Assembly (NCBI GenBank): GCA_965230895.1
Contig: OZ246394.1
Span: 1,249,887-1,313,886, forward strand
Source: an uncultured Gammaproteobacteria bacterium
GTDB lineage: Bacteria; Patescibacteriota; Microgenomatia; Levybacterales; UBA12049
Direction: 5' to 3'
DNA length: 64,000 bases
Position numbers and translations under genes: made by a program. Of this stretch, positions 5,349 through 59,300 are shown one piece after another; the stretch's first letter is position 1, and every line of letters begins with the position of its first letter. The notes under the pieces are model-generated. The model saw nothing but the letters and a program-made list of their open reading frames with translations. It made no database searches and had not been told where the DNA came from.

Positions 5349-6004
5349 AAGATTTGGGAGTCAAAGTGAAAACACTTTTGCTCACACTGAAGTTTCACTA
5401 ATTACTTTGGGCGGCAGACTCATCCGAGAGTGAGTCTTCTATGTTTGAAACATTGATACGCACCGCTTCAAAGACCTTCCTTTCAAGAGCTTTGACTCCC
5501 CTTCTTGACAATCCCTTCTCCCGGTGTCAACATTCTTTGTATACGCCGCCTCCTTTAGCAAGGAGATATTTCCCGTTTTTAGACTTGATAAGTCCTGCAA
5601 CAATTTCCCGCTGAAGTATTCTCATATGAGCTATTGTACCAAAAACTTCGGAGATTATAGCTTTCTTTTTTCAGTATCTGCTTAGGTATTAAGAGCATCT
5701 ACTGCCAGTGATAAATTATTCTTTGGGGATCGGAAAAAGAGCTTTTTGGTGTGCAAAAGTGGTTTTCATACTCCCCTTTCACGGAGTTCCTGTTGAGACA
5801 TTAGAAAAATCCGCGAACATTCAAAAACAAGGAATGTATTCTTATTTTTTTCATTTTCTACAGGACAATCCAAATCAAGCATTTCTACGAAAAATACACG
5901 AGCAGTGAACTCAAAATTATATAGTTTAGACGTTTCTTGTAGCTTTAAAAATGCTTCCAACTGATAGCAAAATGGGATCTATGCTTATGTGAAAAGCCAC
6001 ATTT

Positions 6005-30572: not shown

Positions 30573-30645
30573 TCCGCGATAGCTCAGCGGTAGAGCAGGA
30601 AGCTGTTAACTTCAAGGTCCTAGGTTCGAATCCTAGTCGCGGAGC
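30573..30645 (+). tRNA. tRNA-Asn (anticodon GUU)
   Basis: Cloverleaf folded by hand: acceptor stem UCCGCGA/UCGCGGA, D-arm GCUC/GAGC, anticodon loop CUGUUAA (GUU), T-arm CUAGG-UUCGAAU-CCUAG, discriminator G. CCA is not encoded. Confidence 0.85.
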
Positions 30646-36948: not shown

Positions 36949-37518
36949 TTATTTTTCAAACATTACCGGGATGACAAGTGGGCCTAATTCTCCTCGAGAG
37001 AAGTCAGGATTAGTTCTTTCAATTACTAGCTTTCCTGCTGATGTTGTTGCTTCTGCTTTGGTAAATACAACTGCTCCTGTGAAAGGAACAAAACTATCTG
37101 TCTTTGTACTTTCGAGTGCTTTAAATGGTTTTAAGAAAAGAATCTTTCCTTTATCATCTTCCAAACGAACCATTAATTGATCTGCATAATACCATCCTCC
37201 GACAGCTTCTCCCGTAACTCTGAATGGACTTGTAACGAGTGTATTTGGCTTTGGCTCAGTTGTTTTAATAACTTCTTTAAGAAGTACGCCATTATATACT
37301 TCTACAAATACTTGCTTCCCTTTTGTGTAACATTCTCGAGGCTTTGACTCGACTACAAGATTGCCTGCTTCGGCACACTCTTCAAATGTTTTTATTTCTG
37401 TAGCAGCTTTGGGTTTGAGATTACCAAGGAGATTCGGGAAGAAAAAGAAGACGCCGACAGCAGCGAGGAGAAGGGTAACAACGAGGGCGATAATTGCGTA
37501 TTTCATGGCAGTATACAA
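36949..37518 (-). CDS. Membrane-anchored Gmad2-like immunoglobulin-fold domain protein
   Basis: N-terminal TM helix. The C-terminal ~110 aa (VTSPFRVTGEAVGGWYYADQLMVRLEDDKGKIL...FTGAVVF...GKLVIERTNP) resembles the Gmad2 domain pattern. Confidence 0.45.
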   Translation of the reverse strand: MYTAMKYAIIALVVTLLLAAVGVFFFFPNLLGNLKPKAATEIKTFEECAEAGNLVVESKPRECYTKGKQVFVEVYNGVLLKEVIKTTEPKPNTLVTSPFRVTGEAVGGWYYADQLMVRLEDDKGKILFLKPFKALESTKTDSFVPFTGAVVFTKAEATTSAGKLVIERTNPDFSRGELGPLVIPVMFEK

Positions 37519-37557
37519 TTATTATAATATAGTTGCCGAAAAATCAATATAGGCGAA

Positions 37558-38295
37558 TCATTTCGCTGGCTGCAGAATTAATTGATCACCGACAATTCCT
37601 ACAATATGATTTCTTTGTTTCGGAAATAATAGGGTGCGTCCAGTTTCGCGAATATACTTCCTAAGTGTCTTAATATTTGGAAGTGTTGATTCATTATATA
37701 TAGCTGGGTCTGCATCCATATTTCCAAACAATTTGTAGATGTCGTTATCTTTAATAGTCTTTGGATATACGGAAAGTTTTGGAAGGAGTTTCCCATATCT
37801 GATTGGGGCACGTTTTGTTTCTTTAGATTGTTGCTCGCTAAATGTATTCCATTTCTTAAACTCTTTTTCAGAAAGATGCATTGTCCCTGTACAGAATTCA
37901 CTGTCACAGATACATGTATGTGTACATGGCGTACAAAAATCTGATGAACTTAATTGGTATGAAATTGTTAATTCTTCTCCTTGAAAGATTTTTCTAAGCG
38001 CAAAAAATAGTGTATGACCTTTATATGTGTAAATCCAACTATTTGGAGTGCATGAATGGTTCACCATATGCGCTCCTGGTTTTCTTAGATTTTCGGGGTA
38101 GAGTGCTGCATAATCGTGATAATAAAGGAGGTATAAACCATCTTTTTCACTTGTATCTTCTTCAGCTATTTTTATTACCTTACCTATATAATCCGCAATA
38201 ACTGTTCCTGGCTTGATTTCTTTCTTTGCAAAAATACCACGCCCTTTTTTCGGAGTCTCTTTAATTTCCCAATACGAACTATCTAGAAGAATCAT
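37558..38295 (-). CDS. SET-domain protein-lysine methyltransferase with Cys-rich post-SET region
   Basis: GRGIFAKKEIKPGTVIADYIG (GxG), HMVNHSCTPN (NHSCxPN signature), GEELTISY (ELxxxY), then the post-SET CTPCTHTCICDSEFCTG. A leaderless-type TACAAT lies 7 nt upstream of the ATG. Confidence 0.8.
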   Translation of the reverse strand: MILLDSSYWEIKETPKKGRGIFAKKEIKPGTVIADYIGKVIKIAEEDTSEKDGLYLLYYHDYAALYPENLRKPGAHMVNHSCTPNSWIYTYKGHTLFFALRKIFQGEELTISYQLSSSDFCTPCTHTCICDSEFCTGTMHLSEKEFKKWNTFSEQQSKETKRAPIRYGKLLPKLSVYPKTIKDNDIYKLFGNMDADPAIYNESTLPNIKTLRKYIRETGRTLLFPKQRNHIVGIVGDQLILQPAK

Positions 38296-38496
38296 GGAGG
38301 CAATTGTACCCTAGTAATTGCGATCGTGGCAAGTGGAACGTATACTGTTATATATGAAGAAGCGGTTACTGATAAAAGATAAAAAATTGCGAGATAAAGT
38401 TAAAGAGGGTAGGGAAGGCGCAAAAAAAGACTTTTTTGAGTTATTAAAGCGCGCTGTAAAGCGCTAGAACACCCTTTAATTATTTCAGACGATGTA

Positions 38497-38976
38497 TTAA
38501 TCATCTTTCTGGACTTCATCATATTCGATCTTGTAAAAGAACTTCCACATACTGAGACCAGACTTCTTTTGTTCTTTGTCGTCAAGGCTTAGCAGATCCC
38601 CATTGTTCATTTCCATTAATTCATAAATACTCCTACACATTCTCCATGCTGTTTTGTAGGTTACTCCTAACTCTTTTTGAACTTGTTTAATAGATATTTC
38701 TCCACGTGTCTGTGTCATAAAAAAAATTGCGAAGAACCATAATCGAAGTGGGGTAGATGACCTTTCAAAAATCGTTCCTCCAAGTGGGTATATATGGTTA
38801 CGGCAGTCTTTACATGCATAGGAAGTCCGATTTTTTATCTTGTAGTGTTTTGTAATTTGCTTACAGCCTTTGCAGTATACTCCTTTTGGGTACTGTAGTT
38901 TTTTGATTTCTTCCAGACATGCCTCGTCATCTGGAAAACTTTGTAGAAAGTCGTGAAAAGAAAATTCTCCTCCCAT
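38497..38976 (-). mobile_element. IS1595-family transposase N-terminal fragment (zinc-ribbon plus HTH only; DDE domain absent), a remnant or domesticated DNA-binding module
   Basis: GVYCKGCKQITKHYKIKNRTSYACKDCRNHIYPLGGTIFERSSTPLRLWFFAIFFMTQTRGEISIKQVQKELGVTYKTAWRMCRSI parallels the IS1595 Tnp N-terminus (C..C...C..C zinc ribbon, PLRTWF...KKG.SAK.L.R.LGV.Y..AW). The ORF stops at 159 aa and no DDE-like frame continues downstream. Confidence 0.6.
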
Positions 38977-39138
38977 AAAATAATGATAATGAAGCTAATT
39001 CCGTGTTGTCAAGGGATAGGGGGTGATATTGCCTATTGACGACTCATCAGGCAATTGTCTATGATGGATTTAATCTAATAAAACTATTAAGCGAATGAGA
39101 ATTTAAGTTATAAGTGCTTTCGCTATAGTGAGGTTAAT

Positions 39139-41454
39139 ATGAAACATAAACTTACTGCCACTCTTGACCATGTAATAACATTTCTACTTTTAATAGTAGC
39201 TGGTGTTACTCCTCTTCTTTTCTTCAATCAAACAACTGAATTCTACGAGATGCCAAAGCTTATCTTTCTAGTTGTTTCCGTACTTGTCTTGACAGGTATG
39301 TGGATTTTTTCTTGGATCTTAAAAGGGAAGGTAATGATTACAAGAACTCCACTGGATATTCCTTTATTAGTACTTTTGGTAGTTGTAGTTGCTTCAGCAT
39401 ACTTCAGCGAATCACGATTCTCAGCAATTTATGGTAATTTCCCTCGAGTTCATGGCTCAGCTGTGGCTTGGGTTACCTATATATTATTGTACTTTGTCAC
39501 GGTTTCTCACCTTCGAAACCTCACTCAAATCAAGACCTTCATGTATACATTGTATGGTAGTGGGTTAGTTGTAGCCTTAATTAGTGTACTTTCATACTTT
39601 GGATTATTCCTTCCAGTTGATTTCGCAAAAGCAGTTAACTTTACTCCAACTGGATCATCATTCTCAACTGTCGCGTTCATGCTTTTGCTCTTACCATTCC
39701 CAGTACTTTCTTTGATAAATCCAAATAAGTATCTTCCAACAGTTCCTGCAGTAGTTTTATCATCAGTATTTGGTATCACTATCGCACTTCTTGGGGGAGT
39801 AGCAACTTATATCGCAATGCTCTTGGTATTCGCACTTGCAGTCTTCGTTTCAAAACCAGCGCAACTTCAAAAGACTGTTGCAATGTTCTTGATCCCAGTT
39901 GCTTTGACAGCTTTGACTTTAGTATTCTCATACGTTCCATTGCCAGGCGGTATGAGTCAAATGCAGGCTAATTTCCCTAAAGAAATCCAACTTCCTTTCG
40001 CAACTTCATGGAAAGTATCAGCATCAGCATTCCGTGACGCACCATTCATCGGAACAGGTCCATCAACATACCTTTTTAACTTCACGTCATACAAGCCATT
40101 GGAGTTCAACCAATTTGACTTCTGGAACTTCTCATTCGACACTGCGTACAATGAATTCTTGCAAGCACTCGGGACCTTGGGTATCCTTGGACTCGTATCA
40201 CTCTTCTTGCTCTGCTTGATCGTTCTTAACTCAGCACGAAAGAACATGTCACTCGACAATGCTGAAGCAACTCAAGATGGTCATGACGGATCACACGAAA
40301 ATGCACATGTCTTACTTCCAGGGTTAGCAATCAGTGGACTTGTAAGTATCGTTCTTCTCGCAATCCATGCAACAACATTGGTCTCAATAGTTGTCACATT
40401 CTTTGTCCTTGCAGCGTTCATGGTTTCACAGAAATCAGTACGGGGTAGAGTAATGAAACTCTCAATGGGTATCAAAGCATCAACTTCAGAGAACAAGCAA
40501 TTTGATCTCTTCCCAGTACTCTTGTTCGTAGCTTTCTTAGTCGCAGCAGTACCAGCGTTGATCCAAACATTCAACACAGCAATGGCAGACTACTATCACA
40601 GACAAGCTTTGGCTCAAGCAAACCAAAACGGTACTAAGACATACGAATATTTGCAAAAGGCTGAATCAGCTAACCCATATATCGACCTCTACAGAGTTGA
40701 TATGGCACAAACTAACTTCGCTCTCGCAAATGCACTCGCAGCACAAAAAGGTCCTAAATCAGCTGACGACAAAGGTACTTTGACTGACGCAGACAAGAAG
40801 ACTATTCAAACACTTCTTTCACAGTCAATCAACGAAAGTAGAGCAAGTGTAGCTTTAAGTCCACGATCATCACGAAACTGGGAAGTACTCGCTTCAATCT
40901 ACCGAAACATCTCAGGAGTTGCACAAAACGCATTAGTATACTCACTTGATAGTTACGGCCGAGCAATCCAAAGAGATCCATTGAATCCAGCACTTCGAGT
41001 TAACGTTGGTGGAATCTACTACTCAATCAAGAACTATGATCTCGCTATCCGATTCTTCTCAGACGCAGCGAACTTGAAGCCAGACTATGCAAATGCATAC
41101 TTCAACTTAGCGATCGCTCTCCGAGATAAGGGTGACTTACAAAACGCTAAAGCAGTTGCAGAACAAGCAGTAAAGATCTTGTCTGAGAACAAAGAAACAG
41201 CTGATTATAAGACAGCATCAACTCTCTTGACTGAACTTAACAAGAAGATCGCTGACTCAGCAGATGAAACTCCAAATCAGGCTTCATCATCAGCTCAGCA
41301 ACAGCCAACAGCTCTTGAGAACCAGAACTTGGAAGACGTAAATGTAGATGGCTTGGACAATGCACCATCAGTTACACCAGCACCAACTGTCCGACCAAAT
41401 CCAGCAGCTAACTTACCACAAGGCATTAACCCAACAGCTGCTCCAAGAAGATAA
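39139..41454 (+). CDS. Large polytopic membrane protein (~12 TM, Wzy_C/O-antigen-ligase-like core) with C-terminal TPR repeats and a low-complexity tail
   Basis: Many hydrophobic helices in the first ~450 aa. TPR motifs (YANAYFNLAIALRDKGDLQNAKAVAEQAVKI; ALVYSLDSYGRAIQRDPLNPALRVNVGGIYY). Gln/Pro/Ala-rich C-terminus. Confidence 0.6.
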   Translation: MKHKLTATLDHVITFLLLIVAGVTPLLFFNQTTEFYEMPKLIFLVVSVLVLTGMWIFSWILKGKVMITRTPLDIPLLVLLVVVVASAYFSESRFSAIYGNFPRVHGSAVAWVTYILLYFVTVSHLRNLTQIKTFMYTLYGSGLVVALISVLSYFGLFLPVDFAKAVNFTPTGSSFSTVAFMLLLLPFPVLSLINPNKYLPTVPAVVLSSVFGITIALLGGVATYIAMLLVFALAVFVSKPAQLQKTVAMFLIPVALTALTLVFSYVPLPGGMSQMQANFPKEIQLPFATSWKVSASAFRDAPFIGTGPSTYLFNFTSYKPLEFNQFDFWNFSFDTAYNEFLQALGTLGILGLVSLFLLCLIVLNSARKNMSLDNAEATQDGHDGSHENAHVLLPGLAISGLVSIVLLAIHATTLVSIVVTFFVLAAFMVSQKSVRGRVMKLSMGIKASTSENKQFDLFPVLLFVAFLVAAVPALIQTFNTAMADYYHRQALAQANQNGTKTYEYLQKAESANPYIDLYRVDMAQTNFALANALAAQKGPKSADDKGTLTDADKKTIQTLLSQSINESRASVALSPRSSRNWEVLASIYRNISGVAQNALVYSLDSYGRAIQRDPLNPALRVNVGGIYYSIKNYDLAIRFFSDAANLKPDYANAYFNLAIALRDKGDLQNAKAVAEQAVKILSENKETADYKTASTLLTELNKKIADSADETPNQASSSAQQQPTALENQNLEDVNVDGLDNAPSVTPAPTVRPNPAANLPQGINPTAAPRR

Positions 41455-42275: not shown

Positions 42276-43274
42276 TTGTATAATTATTTGTGCATGAAAT
42301 GGTGGGCGTACATATTACTTGCTATAACAATTCCTCTTTCTGCTCTTTATCTCTATCAGCTCTATGATGACCAAACTTATGCTGGAGCGCCTCTTGCAAA
42401 GACTTCCAATTGTCCTTTTACCTATATAAATCAGCAACGATGTGAGCCAAATGTTGCTCCAAGAAAGCGTGAATATGTCGAATTGCGAAATGACCTTATT
42501 GAATATTTAGATTCAGAAAAAGAAAGCGGCCGATTAATTGATGGTGCTATTTATTTCCGTGATCTGCAGAATGGTCCTGTTATTAGTATTAATTCCCAAG
42601 ATTATTTCATCCCAGCAAGTTTGCTGAAACTTCCTTTGATGGTTACATATTTAAAGAAGGCTGAAACTGATCCAAATCTCCTTCAAAAGAACATTACGAT
42701 TACTAATGAAATGCAGTCTTTGGATCAAAATATCGTTCCTCGACAAGGTGCGCAAGTTGGCAAAACGTATACCCGTGAGCAATTACTTAATCTACTCATC
42801 TCACAATCAGATAACATTTCCTGGAAGGCTTTATTGACGGATCTCCGTGCCAATTATTCAGAAGAAGATTTCGTTGGTACCTTGAGTGATCTCGGTATCG
42901 TCGATCCTCGTAAACAAGATGACCAGCGGTACATTACAACACAAAATTATGCTTCTATTTATCGAATTCTTTACAATTCTTCCTATCTTAACGCCGAAAT
43001 GTCTAACAAGGCATTGTCAATCTTATCCAAATCTGAATTCAAAGATGGTATTGTTTCGGGAGTTCCAAGTAATGTTCAAACAGCTCACAAGTTTGGTGAA
43101 CAAAAAAATGGTAATGAGCAACAACTTCATGATTGTGGAATTGTCTATTATTCCCCAAGTCCATATATCATTTGCGTGATGACCAAAGGAACTGATATTA
43201 ACAATTTAGAAGCAGCTATTCGAACTGTCTCAAAGGATGTTTATACTGAAGTTGAGAAAAGAAATGCGGATTAA
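42276..43274 (+). CDS. Membrane-anchored class-A beta-lactamase-fold serine hydrolase (divergent), paralog 1
   Basis: N-terminal TM helix. SxxK (PASLLK), SDN (SQSDNIS) and K-x-G (HKFGE). No canonical Omega-loop ExxLN. Confidence 0.65.
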   Translation: MYNYLCMKWWAYILLAITIPLSALYLYQLYDDQTYAGAPLAKTSNCPFTYINQQRCEPNVAPRKREYVELRNDLIEYLDSEKESGRLIDGAIYFRDLQNGPVISINSQDYFIPASLLKLPLMVTYLKKAETDPNLLQKNITITNEMQSLDQNIVPRQGAQVGKTYTREQLLNLLISQSDNISWKALLTDLRANYSEEDFVGTLSDLGIVDPRKQDDQRYITTQNYASIYRILYNSSYLNAEMSNKALSILSKSEFKDGIVSGVPSNVQTAHKFGEQKNGNEQQLHDCGIVYYSPSPYIICVMTKGTDINNLEAAIRTVSKDVYTEVEKRNAD

Positions 43275-43276
43275 TA

Positions 43277-44248
43277 ATGAGGAAATTAAATATAATTTTA
43301 GCCATAGTAATTGCTCTTATCATTGGTTTTTTTTCTGGATCGCTCTATCCAAAGCAGAATAATACTGAATGTGAGGGTGATTATACATACATTAACGCAA
43401 GAATTGGGTGTCAGCCAAAAACAGTAATTAGTAAGCATGAATATACAGGTTTAATGCAAGATCTTAATATTTACATTCGAGCCCAAACCGAAGCAAAACA
43501 TGTGAATCTTGTAGCTGTTTATTATCGAGATTTATCAGCTGGACCTACATTTGGGATTGAATCTCAGGAGAAGTTTGCACCAGCAAGCTTACTTAAGGTT
43601 CCACTCCTCTTAACATATTTAAGTTTAGCAGAGACAGATTCAAACCTATTAAAGAAGCAAATTGCTTTTAAAGGTACAACAGATCTCTTAACTCAATCAT
43701 CTTCTGGTTCATCAGTTCTTAAATCAAATAAAGCATATACAATTGATTCATTGCTGTCCAAAATGATTATAGATTCTGACAATCTTTCGTATGTTCTTCT
43801 GGTAAATTCACTGAAAGAACTTTATCCTAAACAATATCCACTGACTGATACTATGCTTGATCTTGGCTTAGTTAATCCGCGGAACCCTTCAGAAGATACT
43901 ATTACTGTCAAAGCTTATGCATCTATTTTTAGGCATCTATATAATAGTAGCTATCTTTCCCCTGAAATGTCAGAAAAAGCATTACAACTTTTATCACAGG
44001 CTGATTATTCAAAAGGCATTGTCGCTGGGGTTCCTACTGGTACCAAAGTTGCCCATAAATTTGGTGAGCGAGGTAATTTACCTAATGATGCTCAACAGCT
44101 TCATGATTGTGGAATTGTCTATTACCCTGATAATCCATATCTTATTTGTATAATGACTCGTGGAGACAATATGCAGGAATTAGAAACTGTCATCAAAACC
44201 ATTTCAGAAAAAGTCTACAAAGAAGTTGATTCCAGAAAGATTAAATAA
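43277..44248 (+). CDS. Membrane-anchored class-A beta-lactamase-fold serine hydrolase (divergent), paralog 2
   Basis: APASLLK, DSDNLS and HKFGERG. Clear paralog of the upstream gene (QQLHDCGIVYY...PYIICVMT is shared). Confidence 0.65.
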   Translation: MRKLNIILAIVIALIIGFFSGSLYPKQNNTECEGDYTYINARIGCQPKTVISKHEYTGLMQDLNIYIRAQTEAKHVNLVAVYYRDLSAGPTFGIESQEKFAPASLLKVPLLLTYLSLAETDSNLLKKQIAFKGTTDLLTQSSSGSSVLKSNKAYTIDSLLSKMIIDSDNLSYVLLVNSLKELYPKQYPLTDTMLDLGLVNPRNPSEDTITVKAYASIFRHLYNSSYLSPEMSEKALQLLSQADYSKGIVAGVPTGTKVAHKFGERGNLPNDAQQLHDCGIVYYPDNPYLICIMTRGDNMQELETVIKTISEKVYKEVDSRKIK

Positions 44249-44310: not shown

Positions 44311-47300
44311 TTATTCTAGTGGTGTTGCTGAGGAGAGTTCTTGTGGTTTTTCTATTCCGATTTGCATGATCATTTCTGTCTCTGAGAACGCGATTCCAAC
44401 TGGAACTTCCTTTACAGCATTTGCTGGTGCTTCATCTGTGAGTGCACCTGAAACTCCCAAGAAATATTGTTTACCAACTTCCAAGTTGTTCAATACATTT
44501 GCTTTTCCTCCGATAATGATTGTGACATCTTTACCAGCTTGCGCATCGCTAGCAGCGATACCAACTACTACTGTCTTTGCTTCATCTGTTGCATCAGCAA
44601 TCATTACTTCTTTGGTAGCTGAGATGTAAAGCGCATCTCCTTTTTTAATATCTTCACCAGCCTTTGCTGTGATAGTGATAGCTCCAGCAAGATCGATATT
44701 ACCGCCCACTTTGATGTTTTCTTTGGTCTCAACATTCTTTGCGACGATATTGCCCTTAGTGATCATTGATCCATTCTTGTCGATGATCATCGCGCCGTTG
44801 AAGATATCAAGCAAGTTCGCGAGTGGTGACTTCTGCAAGAACAAGATACCATCTGTTGGTTCTTGGCCATTTTCGATTGGTGAGCCAAAGACACTAATTT
44901 CATTTTCTGTGACAGAGAGTGTACCGCCGACATTGATTCGATCATCAACTGTGAGGACTCCTGCGACATTTGTATCTTCGAGTGTTGTCTTGCCTGTCAC
45001 CATGATATCTCCTGAAATTGTTGTGTCACCGAGATATGATTTGCCGAATGACTTGAATGTATCTTGAACAGTTGCAGTGTACGCAGTAAATTCACCACTG
45101 ATTGTTGCTGTTGCAAAGATTGCATTATCAGTAGGGGATGCAGAATTTGTCGCGATCAACAAGTCAGGTGAAGTAAGATCTTCAGCTGATGGAGTTGGCT
45201 CTGCACTTTCACTTGCTGTTGGAGTAGCAGAAGGTGAACCGACGCCACTTGTTGGAGTAGGGGTAGCTGAGACATTAAGACTTGCGATCAAGTCATCAAG
45301 TCTCTGACTCAAACTAGCGAGATCTGCTGAATTTGATGCATTGTTTATCTCTGCAAGTTGTTGTTCCAAGTTAGCGAGCTGTGCATCAGTTGAAGCAACT
45401 TTGTCTCCAAGGATTGCTGCATTGCTTGCTGCTTCTTCAGCTTTTTGTTGTGCTGCTGCAAGTGCTGCAGCCTTAGATGCTTCTTGTGATTCGAGATTTG
45501 TAAGTCGACTATCAAGTTGGTTTGTCTTTTCTTCGAGACTGATTGCACTTGCTTGAAGTGAACTTATAGCAGTTGTCTTATTTGTGAGACTGTTGTTAAC
45601 AGCCAAGAACGCATCAGCCAATGATCCATTAACAACTTGTCCATCGATCTGCATGTTGGATGGGAGGACGACATCTCCAGTTTCGATTGTCTCTTCATCA
45701 GTAAGGATAGCCAATTTGTTACTTGGATCAGCAAATGTAATATTGACGAATGTCATAACCTTACCAACACCTGTTCCAGTGAAGTCTTCAAGTGCTTTAC
45801 CGATAACTTGTCCTGGCTTCGTTGCTTTCATAGCGATACCAGCAACTGATGAAGAAGTGAGGTAATCGCCCTTTTTGATCTGTCCATTTTCTGTACTCAC
45901 CTTGACTGGGACACGTCCAGCAAGAGCAACTGGTACAGCCTTGCCACCACTGATCATTTGTTCATTTTGTGATAATCTAAAGCCTGGTTTCTCGCTGTAA
46001 ACACCGATTATTGTAGTATCATATGTACCCTCTGATTTCTTAACGTTTTCATCAACATTTTGGTCGATAGAAAGGACGTCACCGGCTTGCAGTGAATCGT
46101 CTTGCGTACCATAATCTTCAGCCAAATCATAGTTGCCGCCGTTGGTTGTAAGTGTTCCAGACAATGTCGCGTTGCCAGTACTGTCGATAGAGAAGAGTTC
46201 TTGGTTTGCTGCATTCTTCCACATGAACTTGTTGGTGTCAATTCCTGTGTAGTCGGATGCCAACTTACTGATAACATCTCCATTGATTCCTTGGATTGAT
46301 CCTGAGAGCAAGTCGAGGAGAGGAGTCTTAACTGATCCTGAAGCTGTAACATCTCCGAATGCTGCTGAACTTGCAGTAAGATCTCCAAGAATATCGAAGT
46401 TACCATTATGAGTCCAAGCGCCGAGGCCAGAGTATTCCGGTACAGCATTTGGATCAGCATAAGCATTAACAACATATACCATGACAGTGGTTTTTCCACT
46501 ATTTGGATCCCAATCTTCCAGAGCTTTACCGACAATAAATCCTTTTTGTGTTGCCTTCATACCTTTACCTGATTCAGCAGATGTCGTAACGAAATCACCG
46601 GTTTGAATTGCAGGAGATGATGCAGAAATCTTTACAGGGACACGGCCATTCAAAGCAATTGGCATCGGTCGATCTGCTTCTTCAATATTATGTCCAATAC
46701 TATTAAAGTCACCTGCATTATCTGGATTTGAAACGATACCAATAGTACTGGATTGATATTCAGAGGTTGTTTTAACAAGTTTTGATACTCTTTCACCATC
46801 TTTAGTTGTGATGTATGTAGATCCTGGAGCTACGATATCACCTGTTTCGATATCATCATCAACTGAATACATTTCCATATAGTCGGCTGCAGGTGTTGAT
46901 GTACAATCTCGGATAAGGACATTGGTCGTTATACCATTTCCATTTTCTCCACAAAGTGCTTCGTCTGAACTGCCGCTTGCAAGGTCAATCATCAATGTGC
47001 CGTTAATATTAACAACACCGTTGGTATTGTTATCAATAGTTTCACCATTCTGGAGTTGGATATCGTTGGTGATATTTGTATTAGAGAACGTCAAACCTGT
47101 GCCTGTACTTGCACCAATTGTAACGTTACCAGCATTTGCTACGGTAAATACTGATGTACCTGAGTCTTTAAGTTCCATGAGTGGTCCAGTTCCAGCGTTG
47201 TTGACAACAAGTGCTGTTCCTGATGTCGTACCATTTACATTGACGATAGGTTGGGTAGTCGAACTACTCGCAACATCAAGTGCTGCTCCTGGAGTGTATG

Positions 47301-50300
47301 TATTGATACCCAATTGTCCTGTTTGTGTTGTACTAGTACTTCCCATTGCAGGATTAACGATATTCCAGTACAAACCATTGCCAATCGGAGTAATGTTATT
47401 GATACCGAAGTCAGACATAACTGTACCAGTCTTACCTACGACGAGACCCTTGATGTAATGGTTATTGTTTGATCCACCAGTACGAGCACCAAATCCGAAC
47501 TTCGTGTTGTCTGGATTGTACAAGTTACGAGTGTAAACGTCTCGGTAGTTGAGAACTGGTTGACCATCGATACGAACAACGATTTCGTTTCCTCGGATGA
47601 TGATATCTGCTTGCTTAAATTGGTTTGTATCGATAGTACCGTTTGGCAACACAGCTACAGCAAGTGGGTTACCAGCACCGCCACCAGTTGTGCATTGTCG
47701 ACCATCGGTAAATGGTCCGTATGTGATACCGATACAATCGTTACCTGAACCAGCACCGTATTCACTGAAGTAGATGATGTAACCCTGGGTCATGCCAGCA
47801 CCGTATTCAGTTGTAGGAACAGCATTTGCATAACTGTAGAACCAAGTACCATCAGCACCTGTACCACCACCAGCTTTGAAGTTAAATTGGATGTGTTCAT
47901 AAGGAAGCTGGTTGAAGTCCCAGTTGATTGAACCATTCTGGTTGTTTGCATTTGATGTAAGTCGAACTCCGTTACCACCACCGACGTATGATGCATTACC
48001 AGAAAGGGTAGGGACTGGATCTGCCTGGCTTCCAGTTGTTGGATCGTTAACACCGTCCCAGTAAGCGAGTGCAGCATTGGTGATAGCTGTATTAAGTGAT
48101 GCCAAACCGATATTACCTGATCCATCGACACCCAAGATACTTGTGAATGCACCAGTTGCTGTTTGTGCTGTTGTTACCTGACTGATTCTCAAACCTGAAA
48201 CATTGGTTGTACCAGAATTAATCGTAAGTGTGTTATCAAGTGATGTTGGTCCGTGCAATGTAAGTGCACCAGTGTTATTTCCGATTGTTGTTGCTGCAGT
48301 TCCAGTACTGTTGATGAGAGTTGTTCCAGTTACAGTAAGTCCGTTACTTGTTACGATTCCGTCACAAGTGAGGTTACCATTTGCATTGAATACTGTACAT
48401 CCAGTTGTACCAGTTCCACCAGCCAATTCGATGTTTCCAGTTGAAACGTTACCGATTCGGATATTTCCGGTTGTTCCAGCATTAATACTGAGTGGAGTAG
48501 CAGCAGTTGTTACGCCAAGAGCAGGAGCATTTCCAGCAAGCGAAATTGTGTTTGAGTTAATGGTGAATGTTCCTGAACCAAATGTGATTGCTCGGTTATT
48601 TGTTGTGTTAATACCAAGTGTTCCAGTTCCAGAAAGATCAAAGATTGGGTTGTTACCAGTTAAGTTAAATGCAGTAGATGCAAAGTTTGATGTTGCACCG
48701 GATACTGTCAAACCACCATTGATTGTTGTTGTACTTCCAGATGCTCCGATTGAAAGGGTAGAAGCGCCGCCACCAATGTTAAGTGTTGATGTTTGTACTG
48801 TGTTAAACAAGTTTACTGTTGTTCCAGAAGTTGCATACAAGTCACCGCCGTTAACGATCAAGTCGCCAGTCATTGTTGTATTACCAGTTCCAAGGAATGA
48901 GTATGATGGGTTAGTTGAACCGTTACCGAATGAGATGTTTTCTGTACCATTTGTTGTGTTGATGTTAATGTAATTGTTTGCACCTTCCTGGATATCAAGA
49001 GCATCTGTATTGTTATCAACCAAGTTTGCAGTGATATCATTTCCAGCACCATTTGCTGTTAATGTAACAGTTGTTCCAGAAGCAGTGATTGCATCTCCAC
49101 CGTCTCCGATGTTTGCGATACCATTTGCAGTGAGTGTACCAGCAACGGTTAATCCATTATTTACTGTTGTTGTGCCAGTTGCTGCACCGAGTGAGACAGT
49201 TGTAGCAGCTCCGCCGATGTTCAATGTAGTAGCAGTTGTGTTGAACAAGTTCGCTGTTGCTTTTGCAGCAGTTAACGTTGATTGAGTAGTTCCATCGATT
49301 GTCAAACCACTTGATGCTGTTACTGCGCCGGTCAATGTAGAAATACCATCAACAGTTAATGTACCGTTTGCCTGTATGTTTCCAGCGTTACTGATACTCA
49401 CACCAGTTGACCCATAACCTCCGCCAACATTTACTGTATCAAATCCTGCAGTTGCACTTGTTGCTGCAATACTTGTTGCGTTAGGGAAGTTGATTGTTGT
49501 TCCTCGGATATTTCCAGTCGCATTTGTTGCGCCCAAAGTGTATGTTGTTGCAGCTCCACCGATATTCAATGTCGTTGCTCCAGTGTTGAAGAGGGAAGCA
49601 GTACCAGCAGTTGTTGTAAGATCTCCACCATTAAGAGCTGCATCTCCACCACTTGTGATGTCACCATTTGCACCGTTGACTGAGAAGTTTGTACCAGCGA
49701 TATCATTTGCACCAATTGAAAGAGCTGTTCCGATATCTGCATTACTGACATCAAGCGCAGTTGTAACATTGCCACTTGGTGTGCCAACGATTCTCAAAGC
49801 GATTGGCAATGCTCGATCGGTGTCTTGGTTTTGGATCAAAACGAGTTGTGTAGGATCTGCTGTCCCAGCGCCATTTGCCCGTGAGATTTCAATGCCACCT
49901 GTTGAACCAGTTGCCGTTGTAACTGTGAACTTAGAATCAGCAGTAGTGTCAGCAAGAGTGAATGCGATATCTTTGTTGTTTGTTGTTGTGATTGCATTGC
50001 CATTGTCATATGCACTTTGGAGACTTTGTGATGCAGCTGCACAAGTAACAACTTGGTTTGAACCATTTGTACAAAGTCCAGTTCCAGTAGCAGTTGTCAA
50101 ACCATTCAATGTTAAGAATGAATCAGCATCTGAAGTGATAGTAACTCCATTTGTTCCTGATGGTGAGAAGTTAGATTGACCATTTGCTGTGAATGTCTGA
50201 CCTGATGCAACTGTCAAACTACTGTTAAATGTTGCTGTTCCTCCAGCTGCACCGATTGCCATTGTTGTAGCAGCGCCACCGATGTTTACTGTTGTTGCGT

Positions 50301-53300
50301 TTGCATTAACCAAATTGAATGTTCCGGCAGTTGTTGTAATATCACCACCATTTACAGCAACGTCTCCAGTAGCAGTGACATTACCAGTTAATGTTGAAGT
50401 TCCATCGACAGTTAAGGTCCCATTTGCTTGGATATTTCCAGTGTTACTGACACTAACTCCAGTTGATCCGTATCCACCACCGATTGAGAGGGAATCAGCA
50501 TTGAATGCTGCTGTCAAAGCAGAGATTGTTGTTGCATTGTTGAAGTTAATTGTTGTTCCTCGGAGGTTTCCAGTCGCGTTGGTTGCACCGATTGTGTATG
50601 CAGTTGCAGCGCCACCCATGTTCAATGTCGTTGCATTTGTATTGAATACTGTTGCCGTACCAGTTCCTGATGTTGTGATGTCGCTTCCATTGACAGCCAA
50701 GTCACCTGATGTTGTGATATTACCAGTTGATCCAGTGATAGAGAAGTTAGTTGCTGATAAGTTGCTTGCACCAAGAGCGATACCAGTTGTGATACTTGCA
50801 TCAGAGACATCAAGTCCAGTTGTAACGCCACCACCACCAGATGATGTAACCTTCAAACCTGTTGGAACAGCTCGATTTGTGTCAGCATTGTCGATCAAGA
50901 TCAATTGTGCAGGATCTGAAGTGCCAGCACCATTAGCTCGTGAGAATGTAGAGAATCCAGTTGATCCATCAGCAGTTGTAACAGCGAAGTTAGAATCAGT
51001 TGCAGTGTCAGCGAGTGTGAATCCGATGTTTCGAGCATCTGTTGTTGTGATAGTGTTACCGTTGTTGTATGCAGTTTGCAAGTTAAGTGAAGATGCATTA
51101 CATGTACCAACATTATTTGATCCATCAAGACAGAGTGTAGTACCAGCAACTGATTGCAAACCAGTCAAGATCAATGTTGAATCAGCATCAGTTGCGAAAG
51201 TAATATCATTTGTACTATTTGGTGAGAATGAAACTGCACCAGCTGTTGTGAATGTACTGTTGTTTCCGACTGTCAAAGCATTTCGGACAGTTGTTGTACC
51301 TGTTGTTGCACCGAGTGTCATTGTTGTTGCAGCTCCACCAACATTCACTGTTGTTGCGGTTGTATTAAACAAGTTCGCTGTTGTCTTTGATGAGATCAAA
51401 TCTGATGTCGATGCACCATTGATTGTAACTCCATTTGATGCTGTAACTGCACCTGTCAATGTAGAAGTTCCGTCAACTGTGAGGTTGCCATTTGCTTGGA
51501 CATCTCCAGCACTTGAAACTGAAACTCCAGTTGAACCATAACCGCCGCCGATTGCAGTTGATGAGATGTTTAATGCTGCTGAATTTGCAGTGATTGATGT
51601 TGCGTTAGGGAAGTTGATTGTTGTACCTCGGATATTTTGTGTTGCATTGGTTGCACCGGTTGTGATACTTGTTGCTGCACTTCCCATTGTTACTGTTGTT
51701 GCATTTGTATCAAAGAGTGAGCCAGTAGTTGCAGTTGTTGAAAGTGTACCGCCATTAACTGCGACGTTTCCAGCAGTTGTGATGTTACCATTCGCTCCTG
51801 AGATAGAGAAGTTACTTGCTGAGACATCATTTGCACCGAGTGAAAGTGCTGTAACGATAGATGCATCTGAGAGATCAAGTGCAGTTGTTACACCAGCGCC
51901 ACCAGTTGATCCGATCTTGAGTCCTGTTGGCAAGATTCGATCAGCATCAGCATTGTCGATCAAGACGAGTTGTGATGGATCAGCAGATCCTGCGCCATTT
52001 GCTCTTGCGAAGACTGTTCCGCCAGTTGAACCATCAGCAGTTGTGATGTTGAAGTTAGCATCAGTTGCAGTGTCAGCCAATGTGAATCCGATGTTTCTGT
52101 TATTTGTTGTAGTGATTGTATTTCCATTGTCATAAGCAGCTTGCAAACTTGCATTTGCTGTCAAATCACATTTAACAACTTGATTTGAACCGTTAACACA
52201 AAGTGTTGGTTGTGCACCTGATGCTGTTGTCAAACCACTGATTGTTAAGAATGAATCAGAATCTGTTGCGATTGTTACACCATTTGTACTGTTAGGGGAG
52301 AATGATACTGCGCCAGTTGTTGTGAGCGCACTATTGTTAGCAACAGTCAAAGCATTTCGGACAGTTGTTGTACCAGTAGTTGCACCGAGTGAAACAGTAG
52401 TTGCTGCGTTACCAATATTCAATGTCGTTGCGTTTGTATTGAATAATGTTGCTGTTGCGAATGTTGTTGTAAGGTCTCCACCATTAAGAGCCAAGTCACC
52501 ACTTGAAGTGATGTTACCAGTCAATGTTGATGCTCCGTCAACTGTCAATGTACCATTTGCTTGGATGTTGCCAGCGTTACTGACACTAACTCCAGTTGAT
52601 CCATATCCGCCACCGATTGTTGCTGCATCGATTGTGAGAGTTGCGCCACTTGCATTCAATGCTGTTGCATTTGGAAGACTGACAGTTTGATTATTAATTG
52701 TTGCTGTACCACTTGCTCCACCGATGTTCAATGTTGTAGCAGCTCCAGCGAAGTTAACAGTCGTTGCAGTTGCATCAACCAAGTTGAATGTTGTCTGGTT
52801 TGTTGAGATAGTTCCACCATTTGCAGCGATTGAACCATTAGTTGAAAGGTTACCGTTACTACCAGTGAGTGAGAAGTTGGTTGCTGTGATGTCATTTGCG
52901 CCAAGTGAAAGTGCATTGACGATTTCAGCATCTGAGAGATCAAGTGCGTTTGTGATTCCACCAGCTGCAGCTTGGACTTTAATACCTGCTGCAACTGCTC
53001 GGTTTGTATCCAAGTTATCAACCAAGATCAATTGGTTTGGATCTGCAGTTCCAGCGCCATTTGCTCGAGTGAATGCTGAGTAACCAGTTGATCCATCAGC
53101 TGTTGTGATAGTGAAGTTACTATCAGTTGTTGTGTCAGCAAGTGTAAATCCGATGTCTCGTGCATCAGTTGTAGCAATTGTGTTTCCAGCATTATATGCA
53201 GCTTGGAGAGAGAATGATGCAGCTGAACATGTACCAACGTTATTTGATCCATCAACACAGAGAGTTGATCCGGCAACTGATTGCAAACCAGTTAATACCA

Positions 53301-56300
53301 ATGTTGAATCAGCATCAGTATTGATTGTGATATCACTTGTACTTGCTGGAGTAAATGATACTGCACCAGTTGAAGTGAGTGAACTGTTGTTACCGATTGA
53401 AAGGTTGTTGTTAACAGTTGTCGTACCAGTTGCTGCGCCGAGTGAAACAGTAGTCGCAGCACCACCAACATTCAATGTTGTTGCTCCTGTGTTGAATAGT
53501 GTTGCAGTACCAGATGTTGTCGTAAGATCTCCACCGTTCAATGCGATGTCTCCAGTTGCAGTAACATTTCCAGTTAATGTGGAAGTGCCATCAACAGTTA
53601 ATGTACCGTTTGCTTGAATGTTACCAGCATTACTGATTGTTGCACCAGTAGAACCGTATCCACCGCCGATTGCAACACTATCAAATGTAGCAGCAGCTTG
53701 TGGAGCAGTGAATGATGTAGCGTTAGCAAAGTTAATTGTTGCGTTTCTGATGTTAGCTGTACCAGTTGTTGCACCGATATTTAATGTCGTTGCAGCACCA
53801 CCAACATTAAGTGTTGTTGCTGTTGTATTGAAGAGGGAAGCAGTTGTTTGATTAGTTGTAAGATCGCCACCATTAACTGCGATATCACCAGCAGTTGTGA
53901 TGTTTCCATTTGAACCAGTGATTGAGAAGTTCGTTGCACTGACATCATTTGCACCGAGTGAGAGAGCGTTAACGATTGATGCATCTGAAAGGTCAAGTGC
54001 AGTTGTCACACCAGCTCCACCAGATGATCCGATTTTCAAACCAACTGGCAAGATTCGATCTGCATCCAAGTTATCGATCAAGACTAATTGTGTTGGATCA
54101 TTTGTACCAGCACCATTTGCTCGAGCAAATACTGAGTAACTTGATGAATTATCAGCTGTTGTTACTGAGAAGTTAGAATCAGTAGCTGTATCAGCCAAAG
54201 TGAATGAGATGTCTCGGTTGTTTGTTGTTGTGATAGTGTTTCCATTGTTGTATGCAGCTTGCAAACCTTGTGACGCTGAGTTACATGTACCAACGTTATT
54301 TGAACCATCGATACAAAGTGCTGTTCCTGTAAGTGACTGCAAACCAGTCAATACCAAAGTTGAATCAGCATCAGTATTGATTGTTACATCGTTTGTACTG
54401 TTAGGGGAGAATGATACTGCACCAGCGGTTGTGAATGTACTGTTGTTTCCAACAGTCAAAGCGTTTCGAACTGTTGTTGTACCAGTTGTTGCACCGAGAT
54501 TAAGAGCTGTAGCAGCACCACCAACATTCAATGTTGTTGCTGTAGTGTTAAACAAGTTCGCTGTTGTTTGTGTTGTGTTGATTGTTCCTGAGTTAGCATT
54601 GATGTTGCCAGTTGCAGTTAATGTACCAGAAACAGTTGCTGCGCCATCAACCCCGAGATTACCATTCATATTGATGTCTCCAGCATTTGTGATTGTTGTA
54701 CCACTTGAACCATAACCGCCACCGATTTGGATACTGTCAAATGTTGCTGCAGCTTGAGGAGCAGTGAATGAAGTTGCATTAGCAAAGTTGATTGTCGCGT
54801 TTCTGATGTTTGCAGTACCAGTAGTTGCTCCGATATTTAATGTGGTAGCAGCGCCACCGACGTTCAATGTCGTTGCATTTGTATTGAACAAGTTAGCTGT
54901 TGTTTGGTTTGTATTGATTGTTCCGGAATTAGCATTGATATTTCCTGAGAATGTACTTGCGCCAGTTCCGAGGAATGAGAATGTTGGATTAGTTATGGTG
55001 TTACCGAATGCAAGATTCTCAGCACCATTTGTTGTGTTCAAGTTAATGTAGTTATTTGAACCTTCCTGGATATCAAGAGCGTTTGCATTACCATCAACAA
55101 CATTTGCAACCAAGTTGTTATTCAATGTTGTTATGCCAGTTCCAGCACCAAGTGCAACTGTTGTAGCAGCACCACCGATGTTGAGTGTCGTAGCAGTTCC
55201 ATTGATCAAGTTAAATGTTCCAGCAGTTGTTGTAAGGTCGCCACCATTCACTGCGATGTCGCTTGCAGCAGTTACATTACCAGTTAATGTTGAAGTACTA
55301 TCAACTGTCAAAGTTCCGTTTGTTTGGATATTTCCAGCATTACTGACTGTCATACCAGTTGAACCGTAACCGCCGCCGACATTTAATGTGTCGATGTTTG
55401 CAGTAGCACCAGTTGCATTGATTACAGTTGCATTTGGAAGTGAGATTGTCGCATTGTTGATTGTTGCTGTTCCAGTGTTTGCACCCAAGTTCAATGTAGT
55501 AGCAGCGCCACCAATATTCAAAGTAGTAGCAGTTCCATTGAAGAGGGAAGCAGTGGTTTGATTTGTTGTAAGATCTCCACCATTAACTGCAACGTCTGCT
55601 GCTGTTGTAACATTACCTGTCAAAGTTGAAGTACCATCGATTGTTAATGTTCCGTTTGCTTGGATATTTCCTGTACTGCCAAGTGTTACACCAGTTGAGC
55701 CGTATCCGCCGCCAGCGTTAACAACATCAAATCCAGCTGTTGCTGAAGTACCATCAATTGTTGTCGCGTTAGGGAAGTTGATTGTTGTTCCTCGGATGTT
55801 ACCAGTTGCTCCAGTTCCACCGATTGTGTATGTGTTTGCAGCGCCGCCGATATTCAATGTCGTAACTCCAGAGTTAAGGAGATTGAATGTTGTTGCACTT
55901 GATGTTACGTCACCACCATTTACTGCAACGTCACCAGCAGTAGTGATGTTACCAGTTGCTCCGATAGTTCCTGAAGTTGAAACATTACCATTAGAACCGG
56001 TTACTGAGAAATTAGTACCAGTGATATCATTTGCACCGAATGAAAGAGCAGTACCGATTTCAGCATCTGATACATCAAGTGCTGTCGTGATGCCACCAGC
56101 AGCTGATTGGATCTTAATACCTGCTGGGACAGCTTCATTTGTATCCAAGTTCTCAACCATTACGAGTTGTGCTGGTGGAGTTGTGTTTGTGCCGTTAGCC
56201 AAACCGAAGTATGAATAGCCAGTTGATCCTGCAGCTGTTGTAACAGTGAAGTTAGAATCAGTTGATGTGTTAGCCAAGTTGAATGCGATGTCTCGTGCGT

Positions 56301-59300
56301 CTGTTGTTGTGATTGTGTTACCACCAGCATATGCGTTTTGGAGACTGAGTGTTGCATTTGCACATTGGACAACATTGTTTCCTCCGTCGAGACAGAGTGG
56401 AGTACCGGTTGTTGTTCCCAAACCATTCAAGATTATTGTTGAATCAGTATCAGTTGTGAAGGTTATGTCATTTGTACTGTCTGGAGCAAATGTACTTGCA
56501 CCATTTGCTGTGAATGATTGACCAGTTGCGACAGTTGCTCCAGCATTGAATGTTGCCAAGCCAGTTGCAGTTGTTGTTCCGTCGATCAAAAGGTCATTCT
56601 TAATGTTTGTTGTACCAGTTGCAGCACCCAAGTTAAGAGCAGTAGCAGCGCCGCCAACATTCAATGTTGTAACGCCAGTGTTCAAGAGATTAAATGTGCC
56701 AGCAGATGAAGTTAAGTCTCCACCGTTAATTGCGACATCACCAGTTGCAGTTACATTTCCGGTTAATGTAGAAGTGCCATCGATTGTTAAGTTGCCATTT
56801 GCTTGGATGTTTCCAGCATTAGAGAGAGTTGCTCCAGTTGATCCATATCCACCACCAACGTTCAATGTATCAAATCCAGCAGTTGCTGAAGTTCCATCGA
56901 TAGTTGTTGCATTAGGGAAGTTGATAGTTGTTCCTCGGATGTTTCCAGTTGCTGATGTTGCACCCAAAGTGTATGTCGTTGCAGCGCCACCGATGTTAAG
57001 CGTTGTAGCATTTGTATTGAACAAGTTAGCTGTTGTTTGGTTTGTAGCCAATGTTCCAGAATTTGCATTGATGTTGCCAGTTGCTGTAATTGTCCCTGAT
57101 GTTGTGATGTTTCCGTTACTGCCAGTGATAGAGAAGTTCGTAGCAGTGACATCATTTGCACCGAGTGATAATGCATTAACAATTTCAGGATCTGAGAGAT
57201 CAAGGGCATTTGTGATACCACCAGCAGCTGATTGGATTCGGATTCCAGCAGCGACAGCTCGATCTGTATCCAAGTTATCAACCAAGATCAATTGTGCAGG
57301 GTCTGAAGTTCCAGCGCCATTTGCTCGTGCGAAGATACTTGTACCAGTTGAACCATCAGCTGTTGTAACTGTGAAGTTAGAATCAGTTGCAGTATTTGTC
57401 AATGTGAATGCGATGTCTCGAGCATCTGTTGTGTCGATTGTATTGCCACCAACATATGCATTTTGGAGATTAAGTGTTGCATTTGCACATTGGACAACAT
57501 TATTTGATCCGTCGAGACAAAGTGCTGTACCAGATGCTGTTCCAAGTCCAGTTAAGATGAATGTTGAATCAGCATCAGTTGCAAAGGTAATGTCATTTGT
57601 ACCGTTTGGTGTGAATGTACTTGTACCGTTTGCTGTCAATGTTTGGCCTGATGGGATAGTTGCGCCACCATTGAATGTTGCCAAACCAGTTGCAGTCAAA
57701 GCATTATTGACTGTTGTTGTTCCAGAACCAGCACCAAGTGAAACAGTTGTTGCAGCGCCACCGATATTCAAAGTAGTAGCAGTTCCGTTAAAGAGGGAAG
57801 CAGTTGTTTGGTTGGTTGTAAGATCTCCACCATTGACCGCTACGTCTGCACCAGCTGTTACATTTCCTGTAAGTGTTGAAACTCCATCGATTGTCAAAGT
57901 TCCATTTGCTTGGATGTTTCCAGTATTTGAAAGGGTAGTGCCAGTTGAACCGTATCCGCCACCGATTTGAATACTATCAAATGTTGCAGCAGCTTGAGGA
58001 GCAGTGAATGACGTAGCGTTAGCAAAATTGATAGTAGCGTTTCGGATGTTTGCAGTACCAGTAGTTGCACCAAGTGTGAGTGAAGTAGCAGCGCCACCAA
58101 TATTCAATGTTGTAGCAGTTGTATTGAACAAGTTACCAGTTGTCTGTGATGTAGCAATTGTTCCTGAATTAGCATTGATGTTGCCAGTGAATGTGCTCGC
58201 ACCAGTTCCTAAGAATGAGTAAGTTGGATTGGTTGTTGTGTTACCGAATGAGATGTTTTCAGCACCGTCAGTTGTGTTGACGTTAATGTAATTGTTTGTA
58301 CCTTGTTGGATATCAAGAGCATTTGCATTGTTATCAACCATGTTGACGTTCAAGTTGTTATTCAATGTCGTTGTACCTGTACCAGCACCGATGTTTACAT
58401 CTGTAGCAGCGCCACCAACGTTAAGTGTTGTAGCATTTGTGTTTGCGATGTTCATTGTACTTGCGCTTGTTGTGATGTCGCCACCATTTACAGCAACATC
58501 ACCAGCAGCTGTTACATTGCCAGTTAGTGTAGAAGTACCATCAATTGTGAGATCTCCGTTTGCTGAGATGTTTCCATTGTTTGCGATAGTAGCACCAGTT
58601 GATCCATAACCTCCACCGACATTCACTGCATCAACATTTGCAGTAGCTCCAGTTGCATTGATTGCAGTTGCATTTGGAAGTGAGAGCGTAGCATTGTTAA
58701 TTGTTGCTGTACCACTGTTTGCACCGATGTTCACAGTTGTAGCAGCTCCACCAACGTTCAATGTTGTAGCATTTGCATTGAAGACATTTGCAGTTCCAGC
58801 AGTTGTTGTAAGTGAACCGCCGTTAACTGCAACGTTTCCAGCAGTTGTGATGTTTCCGTTACTACCAGTGATAGAGAAGTTAGTCGCAGTTACATCATTT
58901 GCTCCGAGAGATAATGCGTTAACGATTTCAGGATCTGAAAGATCAAGAGCATTCGTGATTCCACCAGCTGCAGCTTGGATCTTGATGCCAGCAGCAACAG
59001 CTCGGTCTGTGTCCAAGTTATCAACCAAGATCAATTGTGCAGGGTCTGAAGTTCCAGCGCCATTTGCTCGAGTGAATGTTGAGTAGCCAGTTGAACCATC
59101 AGCTGTTGTAACTGAGAAATTACTGTCAGTTGTTGTGTTAGCCAACGTGAATGCGATGTCTCGAGCATCTGTTGTATTGATTGTATTTCCACCATTGTAT
59201 GCAGATTGCAATGTTGTTGTGTTCGCTGAACACTTTGTAACGTTGTTACTACCATCAACACAGAGTTGTGAACCAGCTGTTACTGGGGTTGTAAGGCCTG

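Follow-up and report, generated by a model that had tools for sequence, protein, structure and literature searches.

Within the window, the 64-kb stretch of DNA analysed here, a 159-aa open reading frame (ORF) encodes the zinc ribbon and helix–turn–helix (HTH) of an IS1595-family transposase with no catalytic DDE domain behind them, and a gene for a SET-domain methyltransferase lies beyond it on the same strand. Is such a half-transposase the debris of an insertion sequence (IS), or a host gene in its own right? The first-pass annotation proposed either an IS scar that had brought in the SET gene or a domesticated DNA-binding module co-transcribed with it. We report that the short gene belongs to a conserved family fixed beside a different partner, the divergent gene for a Wzy_C-TPR membrane protein, and that it has kept upstream the left inverted repeat of the ancestral element (Table 1). 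In the explanation that we favor, with rather more confidence than doubt, an immobilised IS left end has been retained and most likely supplies both a transcription factor and its operator, by which the module would control its own expression and probably that of Wzy_C-TPR.

Table 1. Features of the short-gene locus, in window coordinates
Feature	Coordinates	Strand	Description
SET-domain gene	37558..38295	-	245 aa, PF00856 E 2.9e-19; neighbour, outside the conserved module
SET promoter-like site	38303..38332	-	TTGCCA-18-TACAAT; -10 box ends 7 nt before SET ATG
Tiny-gene promoter-like site	38318..38346	+	TTGCGA-17-TATACT; -10 box ends 7 nt before ATG
Tiny gene	38354..38467	+	37 aa, very basic, MKKRLLIKDKKLRDKVKEGREGAKKDFFELLKRAVKR; convergent to short gene; by homology IS-derived
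Short IS1595-derived gene	38497..38976	-	159 aa; DDE-less
Short protein layout			N-terminal helix pair; Cys4 zinc ribbon aa 33-60; HTH aa 77-123; conserved tail W144, F147, E151
Short-gene promoter-like site	38983..39012	-	TTGACA-18-TATCAT, 11/12 matches; -10 box ends 6 nt before ATG
Element, by homology from the IS left inverted repeat	38990..39033	-	tip GGCAAT 39033..39028, 9 extra nt, core TATCCCTTGAC 39018..39008, then ACACGGAATTAGC
Wzy_C-TPR promoter-like site, divergent	39036..39065	+	TTGACG-18-TATGAT; -35 box is the invariant CGTCAA
Wzy_C-TPR gene	39139..41454	+	771-aa membrane protein, O-antigen ligase/polymerase-like PF04932 plus C-terminal TPR

Profile searches bear out the earlier description of the protein as an IS1595 N-terminus. 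Residues 15–60 match Pfam Zn_ribbon_IS1595 (PF12760) at E 1.7e-8 and 34.7 bits (cutoff 25.4), and residues 73–131 resemble NCBIfam transpos_IS1595 at E 2.2e-14 and 53.8 bits, below its 75-bit cutoff, the match spanning only profile positions 2–53 of 215, where the model of the transposase begins with its HTH. Across 33 aligned short-protein homologues, the four cysteines (C35, C38, C55, and C58) and a GVTYKTAWR helix are invariant, and the three tail residues are invariant or nearly so. An AF2 model reaches a pLDDT of 84–93 for residues 11–120 and falls below 50 for residues 133–159. Foldseek with this model returned nothing at E <= 0.001, the likenesses it did find, to the FtsK gamma winged helix (probability 0.96, E 0.29) and the NudC zinc ribbon, being confined to sub-domains and not significant, and a profile of the protein found no sequence match among solved structures in the PDB. 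Judged by profile and homology, the zinc ribbon and HTH together are a sequence-specific DNA-binding domain.

The DDE domain is absent from the locus and from the rest of the window, and the ORF stops short in all homologues. A tblastn search with the C-terminal parts of 70 full-length relatives gave nothing better than E 0.22 in any frame of positions 37000..39200, ruling out a DDE domain hidden behind a frameshift there; the best such match elsewhere in the window (E 0.001) is attributable to chance, since 70 queries were used. As whole proteins, all 70 match the window once each, at the short ORF. The suspicion that the truncation was a frameshift artefact can also be laid aside, the same stop and tail being conserved across hundreds of independent assemblies.

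A search of ∼5.8 billion proteins yielded 254 homologues of the short protein, which among the matches listed are 151–175 aa long, cover the whole query, and are 49–84% identical to it; the family numbers at least 250 clusters. Under 50% clustering, its members with full-length coverage collapse to ∼5–7 representatives among 18,079 N-terminal relatives, and by this measure the family is a compact clade. Strong purifying selection on the gene is indicated by dN/dS values of 0.04–0.15 for the closest pairs (Nei–Gojobori, with synonymous sites near saturation) and by identities of 0.65, 0.76, and 0.43 at the three codon positions, the third being least conserved. A neighbour-joining tree built on 133 N-terminal columns places 47 short proteins on one side of a single bipartition (bootstrap 90/100) and 72 full-length plus 7 sporadically truncated relatives on the other. 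Truncated copies from other phyla (L012, L017, L033, and others) thus fall outside the short family in the tree, and the nearest full-length relative is the element L008, from the Patescibacteria (CPR). On this phylogeny the short family is monophyletic, with a single origin. Matches in a plasmid collection were N-terminal only (43–45% identity) and to annotated full-length IS1595 transposases, the best of which has different ends.

Traces of how the catalytic part was lost are still legible. Four family members (P0088, P0041, P0053, and P0101) keep a remnant of the first-D motif (VEIDEpYvGeK) ahead of the tail, and the tail itself, (K/R)W.FFNK.E.KV, can be aligned to the GKWTLLKQIKENV helix lying ahead of the second D in full-length proteins; together, these suggest a route of internal deletion and truncation followed by further erosion.

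To learn what accompanies the short gene, we compared six members at 52–84% identity, three more, and 20 metagenome loci found through the DNA motif described below. In every lineage with enough sequence (∼25 examined), the short gene is adjacent to and divergent from Wzy_C-TPR (758–800 aa, 56–96% identical across lineages), and the order is always Wzy_C-TPR, motif, short gene, and then a tiny convergent gene. The outer neighbours vary, on the short-gene side among SET, 2-hydroxyacid dehydrogenase (2-Hacid_dh), GAPDH, LapA-like, tRNA, and unknown genes, and beyond Wzy_C-TPR among peptidase S51, GH130 enzymes, and a 546-aa protein, with giant ORFs frequent. Wzy_C-TPR is the presumed regulatory target of the short protein; some of the adjacency could stem from a small 3.4-kb block being inherited as a unit and not from selected linkage. 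Homologues of the three genes carry the names Saccharimonadales, “Patescibacteria group,” and Levybacteria. The closest genome record (L007, CAZDOJ010000001.1), whose short protein is 84% and Wzy_C-TPR 96% identical to those of the window, is labelled “uncultured Gammaproteobacteria,” probably a taxonomic mislabel, since homologues of all three genes otherwise bear the names of Patescibacteria lineages.

Upstream of the short gene lies a near-invariant element, GGCAAT-N9-TATCCCTTGACAACACG. This upstream region can be aligned gaplessly across 22 lineages. CGTCAATAGG.AAT and TATCCCTTGACAACACG are invariant in it, though synonymous sites in the coding sequence are saturated, and 17 of the lineages have GTCAATA at a distance of 64 nt from the ATG. 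Conservation of this cis-element at the short gene's own and the divergent promoter extends beyond the promoter hexamers in all 22: TAGG.AAT, TATCCC, and ACACG around the -35 boxes are invariant, and they are identical to the ancestral inverted repeat identified below. The core, allowing up to one mismatch, occurs a single time in the 64 kb, and the composite pattern with its flanking CGTCAATA was found only upstream of short-family genes, again once in the window.

Promoters were taken as promoter-like sites from a consensus scan, which placed four in the region (for the short, Wzy_C-TPR, tiny, and SET genes) and found no terminator-like site there. The -10 box of the short gene ends so near the ATG that its mRNA is probably leaderless. 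On the other side, the -35 box of Wzy_C-TPR begins two bases outside the tip of the element, and across lineages TAnnnT-type -10 boxes occupy a fixed position. The element is, on this sequence pattern, a candidate operator for the short protein. Its invariant hexamers are also good sigma-70 boxes, and the conservation could partly be a matter of promoter strength rather than of an operator; IS1595 transposases with differing inverted repeats share an invariant HTH recognition helix, which also weighs against the operator reading.

The provenance of the element is seen in the closest full-length IS1595 relatives, to which the first 125 aa of the short protein are 45–58% identical. In these the core, as TTATCCCTTGACA, stands in the corresponding position ahead of the transposase gene, and three full-length CPR elements (L008, L011, and L016) have the same promoter and spacing as the short gene. 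In 22 full-length loci a second, inverted core lies 1.4–4.5 kb away (2.0–2.9 kb in 19 of the 22); the terminal inverted repeats (IRs) are ∼25 bp long, GGTAATTATCCCTTGACAGTAGGTA, and perfect 8-bp target site duplications (TSDs) are present in 14 of the 22, with repeats offset by one base in three more. The IS1595 family is marked by an N-terminal zinc finger, a C-terminal DDE_Tnp_IS1595 domain, and an 8-bp TSD (PMC8101967), and by these published hallmarks the full-length relatives classify as bona fide members (PMC8101967). Since full-length elements with 8-bp TSDs bear this sequence as the IR at either terminus, we identify the element upstream of the short gene as the ancestral left IR (IRL) together with the transposase promoter that it contains. 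Short-family copies differ in having nine additional bases between the GGCAAT tip and TATCCC.

The closest full-length relatives are apparently an unnamed IS1595 subgroup. Its elements are 2.0–2.9 kb long, occur in metagenome-assembled genomes of Acidobacteriota, Chloroflexota, and CPR (L019, L036 at 7846..9869, L050, L051, L053, L070, L073, L074, L084, and others), and hold an inward-facing TTGACA promoter box in both IRs. The transposase gene is accompanied by a convergent passenger, often a Trypsin_2-like peptidase, and the C-termini of the peptidase passengers carry a DFExALKK motif, FTKEDFEAALKKVSRK, that recurs in the tiny protein discussed below.

Measured against these elements, the window locus is alike in its N-terminal homology, in an upstream region corresponding to their IRL with promoter and spacing, and in its small convergent ORF, and unlike in nearly everything that mobility requires. 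Besides the DDE domain, it lacks a right IR (IRR): none was found in the window at up to one mismatch to the core, nor any relic of one upstream of the tiny genes across lineages. The far side has no second copy of the flank CGTCAATA, which an 8-bp target duplication would have left. Neither multiple copies nor variable insertion sites were seen, the short gene having a single match in the window and the same syntenic locus in all lineages examined, and the locus differs further in the 9-nt insertion in its IR and in the purifying selection on the gene as a 159-aa protein. By sequence, then, the features of mobility have been lost. The check for IS1595 inverted repeats flanking the ORF, which the first-pass annotation had suggested, turned up only AT-rich pairs at chance level. 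One pair, 37574-37597 with 39053-39076 (75% complementary), was discarded, one arm being in SET and the other in a promoter conserved in lineages that have no SET. A possible IRR relic at 38299..38317 on the forward strand, GGCAATTGTACCCTAGTAA (GGCAATT..., 13 of 19 positions IR-like, in right-end orientation), was likewise rejected; it sits just upstream of the tiny-gene promoter and overlaps the SET -10 box, and its resemblance to the IR is probably due to chance, as it is not conserved in other lineages.

The spacer that the first-pass annotation placed between the short gene and SET exists, at 201 bp (38296..38496) and with SET beyond it on the same strand, but it is not empty: it holds two promoter-like sites and the tiny gene. 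All 23 lineages examined have this gene, encoded on the opposite strand immediately past the short gene; its product is 37–50 aa long and has the consensus M.KKRL.IKDKKLKE..KK.GRK.AKKDFFELLKRA. Purifying selection is evident from dN/dS values of 0.04–0.3, with the third codon position least conserved, and in several lineages a TATACT-like box stands just ahead of the ATG. The tiny protein has at least 400 homologues (∼38–79 aa), many encoded on contigs shared with the short protein, and no match in Pfam or NCBIfam. Some gene callers miss the gene, which is uncalled in L001, L113, and L114.

Full-length CPR elements, too, encode small ORFs that a profile of the tiny protein recognises as homologous and that converge on the transposase gene. 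Those in L008, L052, and L066 (E 5e-10 to 9e-9) are found at the 3′ end of the transposase gene or no more than ∼110 nt from it, and the one in L079 (E 7e-11) is ∼1.8 kb downstream; weaker matches occupy the same position in more than 10 non-CPR elements. Searched against whole passenger proteins, the profile gave nothing significant, and it was positional and six-frame analysis that produced the informative matches. From these homologies the tiny gene was already part of the ancestral IS, and is thus IS-derived.

We propose the following history. An IS1595-family element would have inserted, tip outwards, just upstream of Wzy_C-TPR in an ancestor of a Patescibacteria clade, and the DDE domain, the passenger region, and the right IR would then have disappeared. 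Selection would have kept the left IR with the transposase promoter, the zinc-ribbon and HTH half of the transposase, and the gene for the small basic convergent protein. The N-terminal domain of a transposase exists to bind the element's inverted repeats, and the 159-aa protein may still recognise the ancestral IR (GGCAAT...TATCCCTTGAC), which overlaps and abuts its own leaderless promoter. Such binding would let the protein autoregulate, and its probable influence on Wzy_C-TPR follows from where the site lies, between about -38 and -65 of the divergent Wzy_C-TPR promoter; a transposase/IR pair would so have become a transcription factor/operator pair. Binding to that sequence, its effect on transcription, and whatever part the tiny protein plays are inferences. 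A stronger version, in which the whole IS regulatory cassette (IR with promoter, zinc-ribbon/HTH protein, and basic accessory protein) was co-opted and long kept as a dedicated controller of Wzy_C-TPR, taken as the gene of a cell-envelope glycan enzyme, is a serious possibility, though we lean slightly against it.

That the gene is a domesticated DNA-binding module, one of the two readings first offered, agrees with its membership of a monophyletic family of constant length, with homology to a transposase coupled to catalytic and terminal losses, with syntenic orthologues of single origin, and with purifying selection. Known systems offer partial parallels. InsA of IS1 is an N-terminal zinc-finger and HTH product that binds the inverted repeats of IS1, repressing the promoter located in the IRL; the short protein is a similar transposase N-terminus whose presumed site is also an IR holding its own promoter, whereas InsA comes from an active mobile IS of an unrelated family and the short gene is immobilised, stripped of its catalytic part, and fixed beside a host gene. 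Nuclease-dead TnpB-derived repressors are bacterial domestications of transposon proteins as regulators. They share with the present case a repurposed transposon DNA-targeting protein at a fixed host locus beside its presumed target, but they are RNA-guided, whereas here a protein-only zinc-ribbon/HTH binder is predicted, with its ancestral DNA site kept.

Among other explanations, the best to survive is that the short protein, perhaps with the tiny protein, is a host-retained transposition repressor or immunity factor that binds the ends of related active IS1595 elements and so stops them from transposing or being transcribed, its position beside Wzy_C-TPR being a historical accident. Truncated or N-terminal transposase derivatives are classical inhibitors, as with IS1 InsA and the Tn5 inhibitor; both the short protein and the tiny ORF were parts of the ancestral IS, and CPR genomes do contain related full-length elements (L008, L011, L016, L066, L070, and L079). 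We nonetheless consider it unlikely, because the module occupies one locus with an invariant shared promoter region in ∼25 lineages, the window contains no full-length copy, and the 9-nt insertion in the retained IR, together with an invariant flank that serves as the Wzy_C-TPR -35 box, points to a local regulatory role.

A DNA-binding function outside transcription, for example of a nucleoid or segregation type and exercised with the tiny protein, would accord with the highly basic character of that peptide and with the weak likeness of the HTH to the FtsK gamma winged helix. The structural matches fall short of significance, however, and conserved candidate sites are limited to the promoter region of the gene itself, the pattern having no other site in the 20 metagenome loci; we judge this function improbable.

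The SET gene deserves closer attention, since the first-pass annotation made it central. SETMAR of primates joins a SET domain to a domesticated Hsmar1 transposase that has retained binding to its terminal inverted repeats (PMC9062482). The present locus is comparable in that a transposase DNA-binding module, kept after mobility was lost, lies physically beside a SET methyltransferase, and it differs in having separate genes and promoters with another gene between them, in the restriction of the arrangement to one sub-clade, and in the transposase family. A partnership in which the short protein, co-transcribed with SET, would target the methyltransferase as in SETMAR could appeal to the adjacency of the two genes on one strand, in the window and in the sub-clade with short proteins at least 67% identical, and to the lack of a terminator-like site between them. 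Yet the convergent tiny gene, with a promoter of its own, intervenes, and SET has its own leaderless promoter (TACAAT, 7 nt, ATG), conserved in the window, L001, L113, and L114; these make co-transcription of the short gene and SET unlikely, and the conserved partner is instead the divergent Wzy_C-TPR. Nor do the two genes co-occur family-wide. SET and Gmad2 follow the module only in that sub-clade, most lineages have no SET here, and SET evolves faster (67% identity, against 84% and 96% for its neighbours). SET is itself a large CPR family (575 matches), widespread and vertically inherited. We accordingly give a SET partnership very little credence.

Least credible of all, and contradicted by the evidence, is the idea that the ORF is a pseudogene, an IS remnant in decay left by some recent insertion or deletion through which SET arrived, for although the catalytic domain and right IR are missing and SET lies immediately beyond, the length, stop, and tail are constant throughout the family under the selection documented above, genuinely truncated copies elsewhere fall outside it, homologue identities of 50–84% exclude assembly duplicates of one sequence, and lineages at 52–63% identity keep the order of Wzy_C-TPR, short, and tiny genes without SET, from which it follows that the short gene pre-dates its juxtaposition with SET.

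Domestication of a transposase DNA-binding domain with its cognate end sequence is a textbook route to eukaryotic regulators. To our knowledge it has rarely been documented in bacteria, and our literature search found no paper on bacterial domestication of an IS1595 N-terminus or on the function of PF12760. Here all stages can be seen in sequence, from active elements with IRs and TSDs, through intermediates with a first-D remnant, to the short form now fixed. Since the ancestral inverted repeat gives the cis-site in advance, the regulator hypothesis is directly testable. If the stronger, whole-cassette version is true, a bacterial transposase/IR pair has become a transcription factor/operator pair, and an IS1595 subgroup encodes a conserved accessory micro-protein that was previously undescribed. 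For annotation, hundreds of CPR “transposase” entries are really conserved host genes, and the analysis identifies both a conserved gene of 37–45 aa overlooked by several gene callers and an IS1595 subgroup with a small accessory ORF. The linkage to Wzy_C-TPR, with genes for giant surface proteins close by, is a hint that the module may control envelope glycans in these ultra-small, episymbiotic bacteria.

Several further features of the locus and its surroundings may interest annotators. In L113 and L114, the gap between the tiny gene and SET is larger and contains, at 5650..5900 on the minus strand, two conserved hydrophobic ORFs of ∼27–30 aa (e.g. MVKVFFPWKAMLVISIVLS...) that are absent from the window. 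A giant ORF at 44311..63951 on the minus strand encodes 6546 aa and is essentially Pfam-free, its sole match being one short UBA_RAD5A-like segment; in relatives, giant ORFs near the same Wzy_C-TPR locus encode 3000 to 16,617 aa (L004 and L091). Two tandem forward-strand genes, 42276..43274 and 43277..44248, weakly resemble the NCBIfam bla_class_A model of class-A beta-lactamases at E 1e-16 and 4e-21, far below its cutoff, and probably encode serine hydrolases or PBP-like proteins. Rfam, at the gathering threshold, gives just one match in the window, a single tRNA gene at 30573..30644 on the forward strand.
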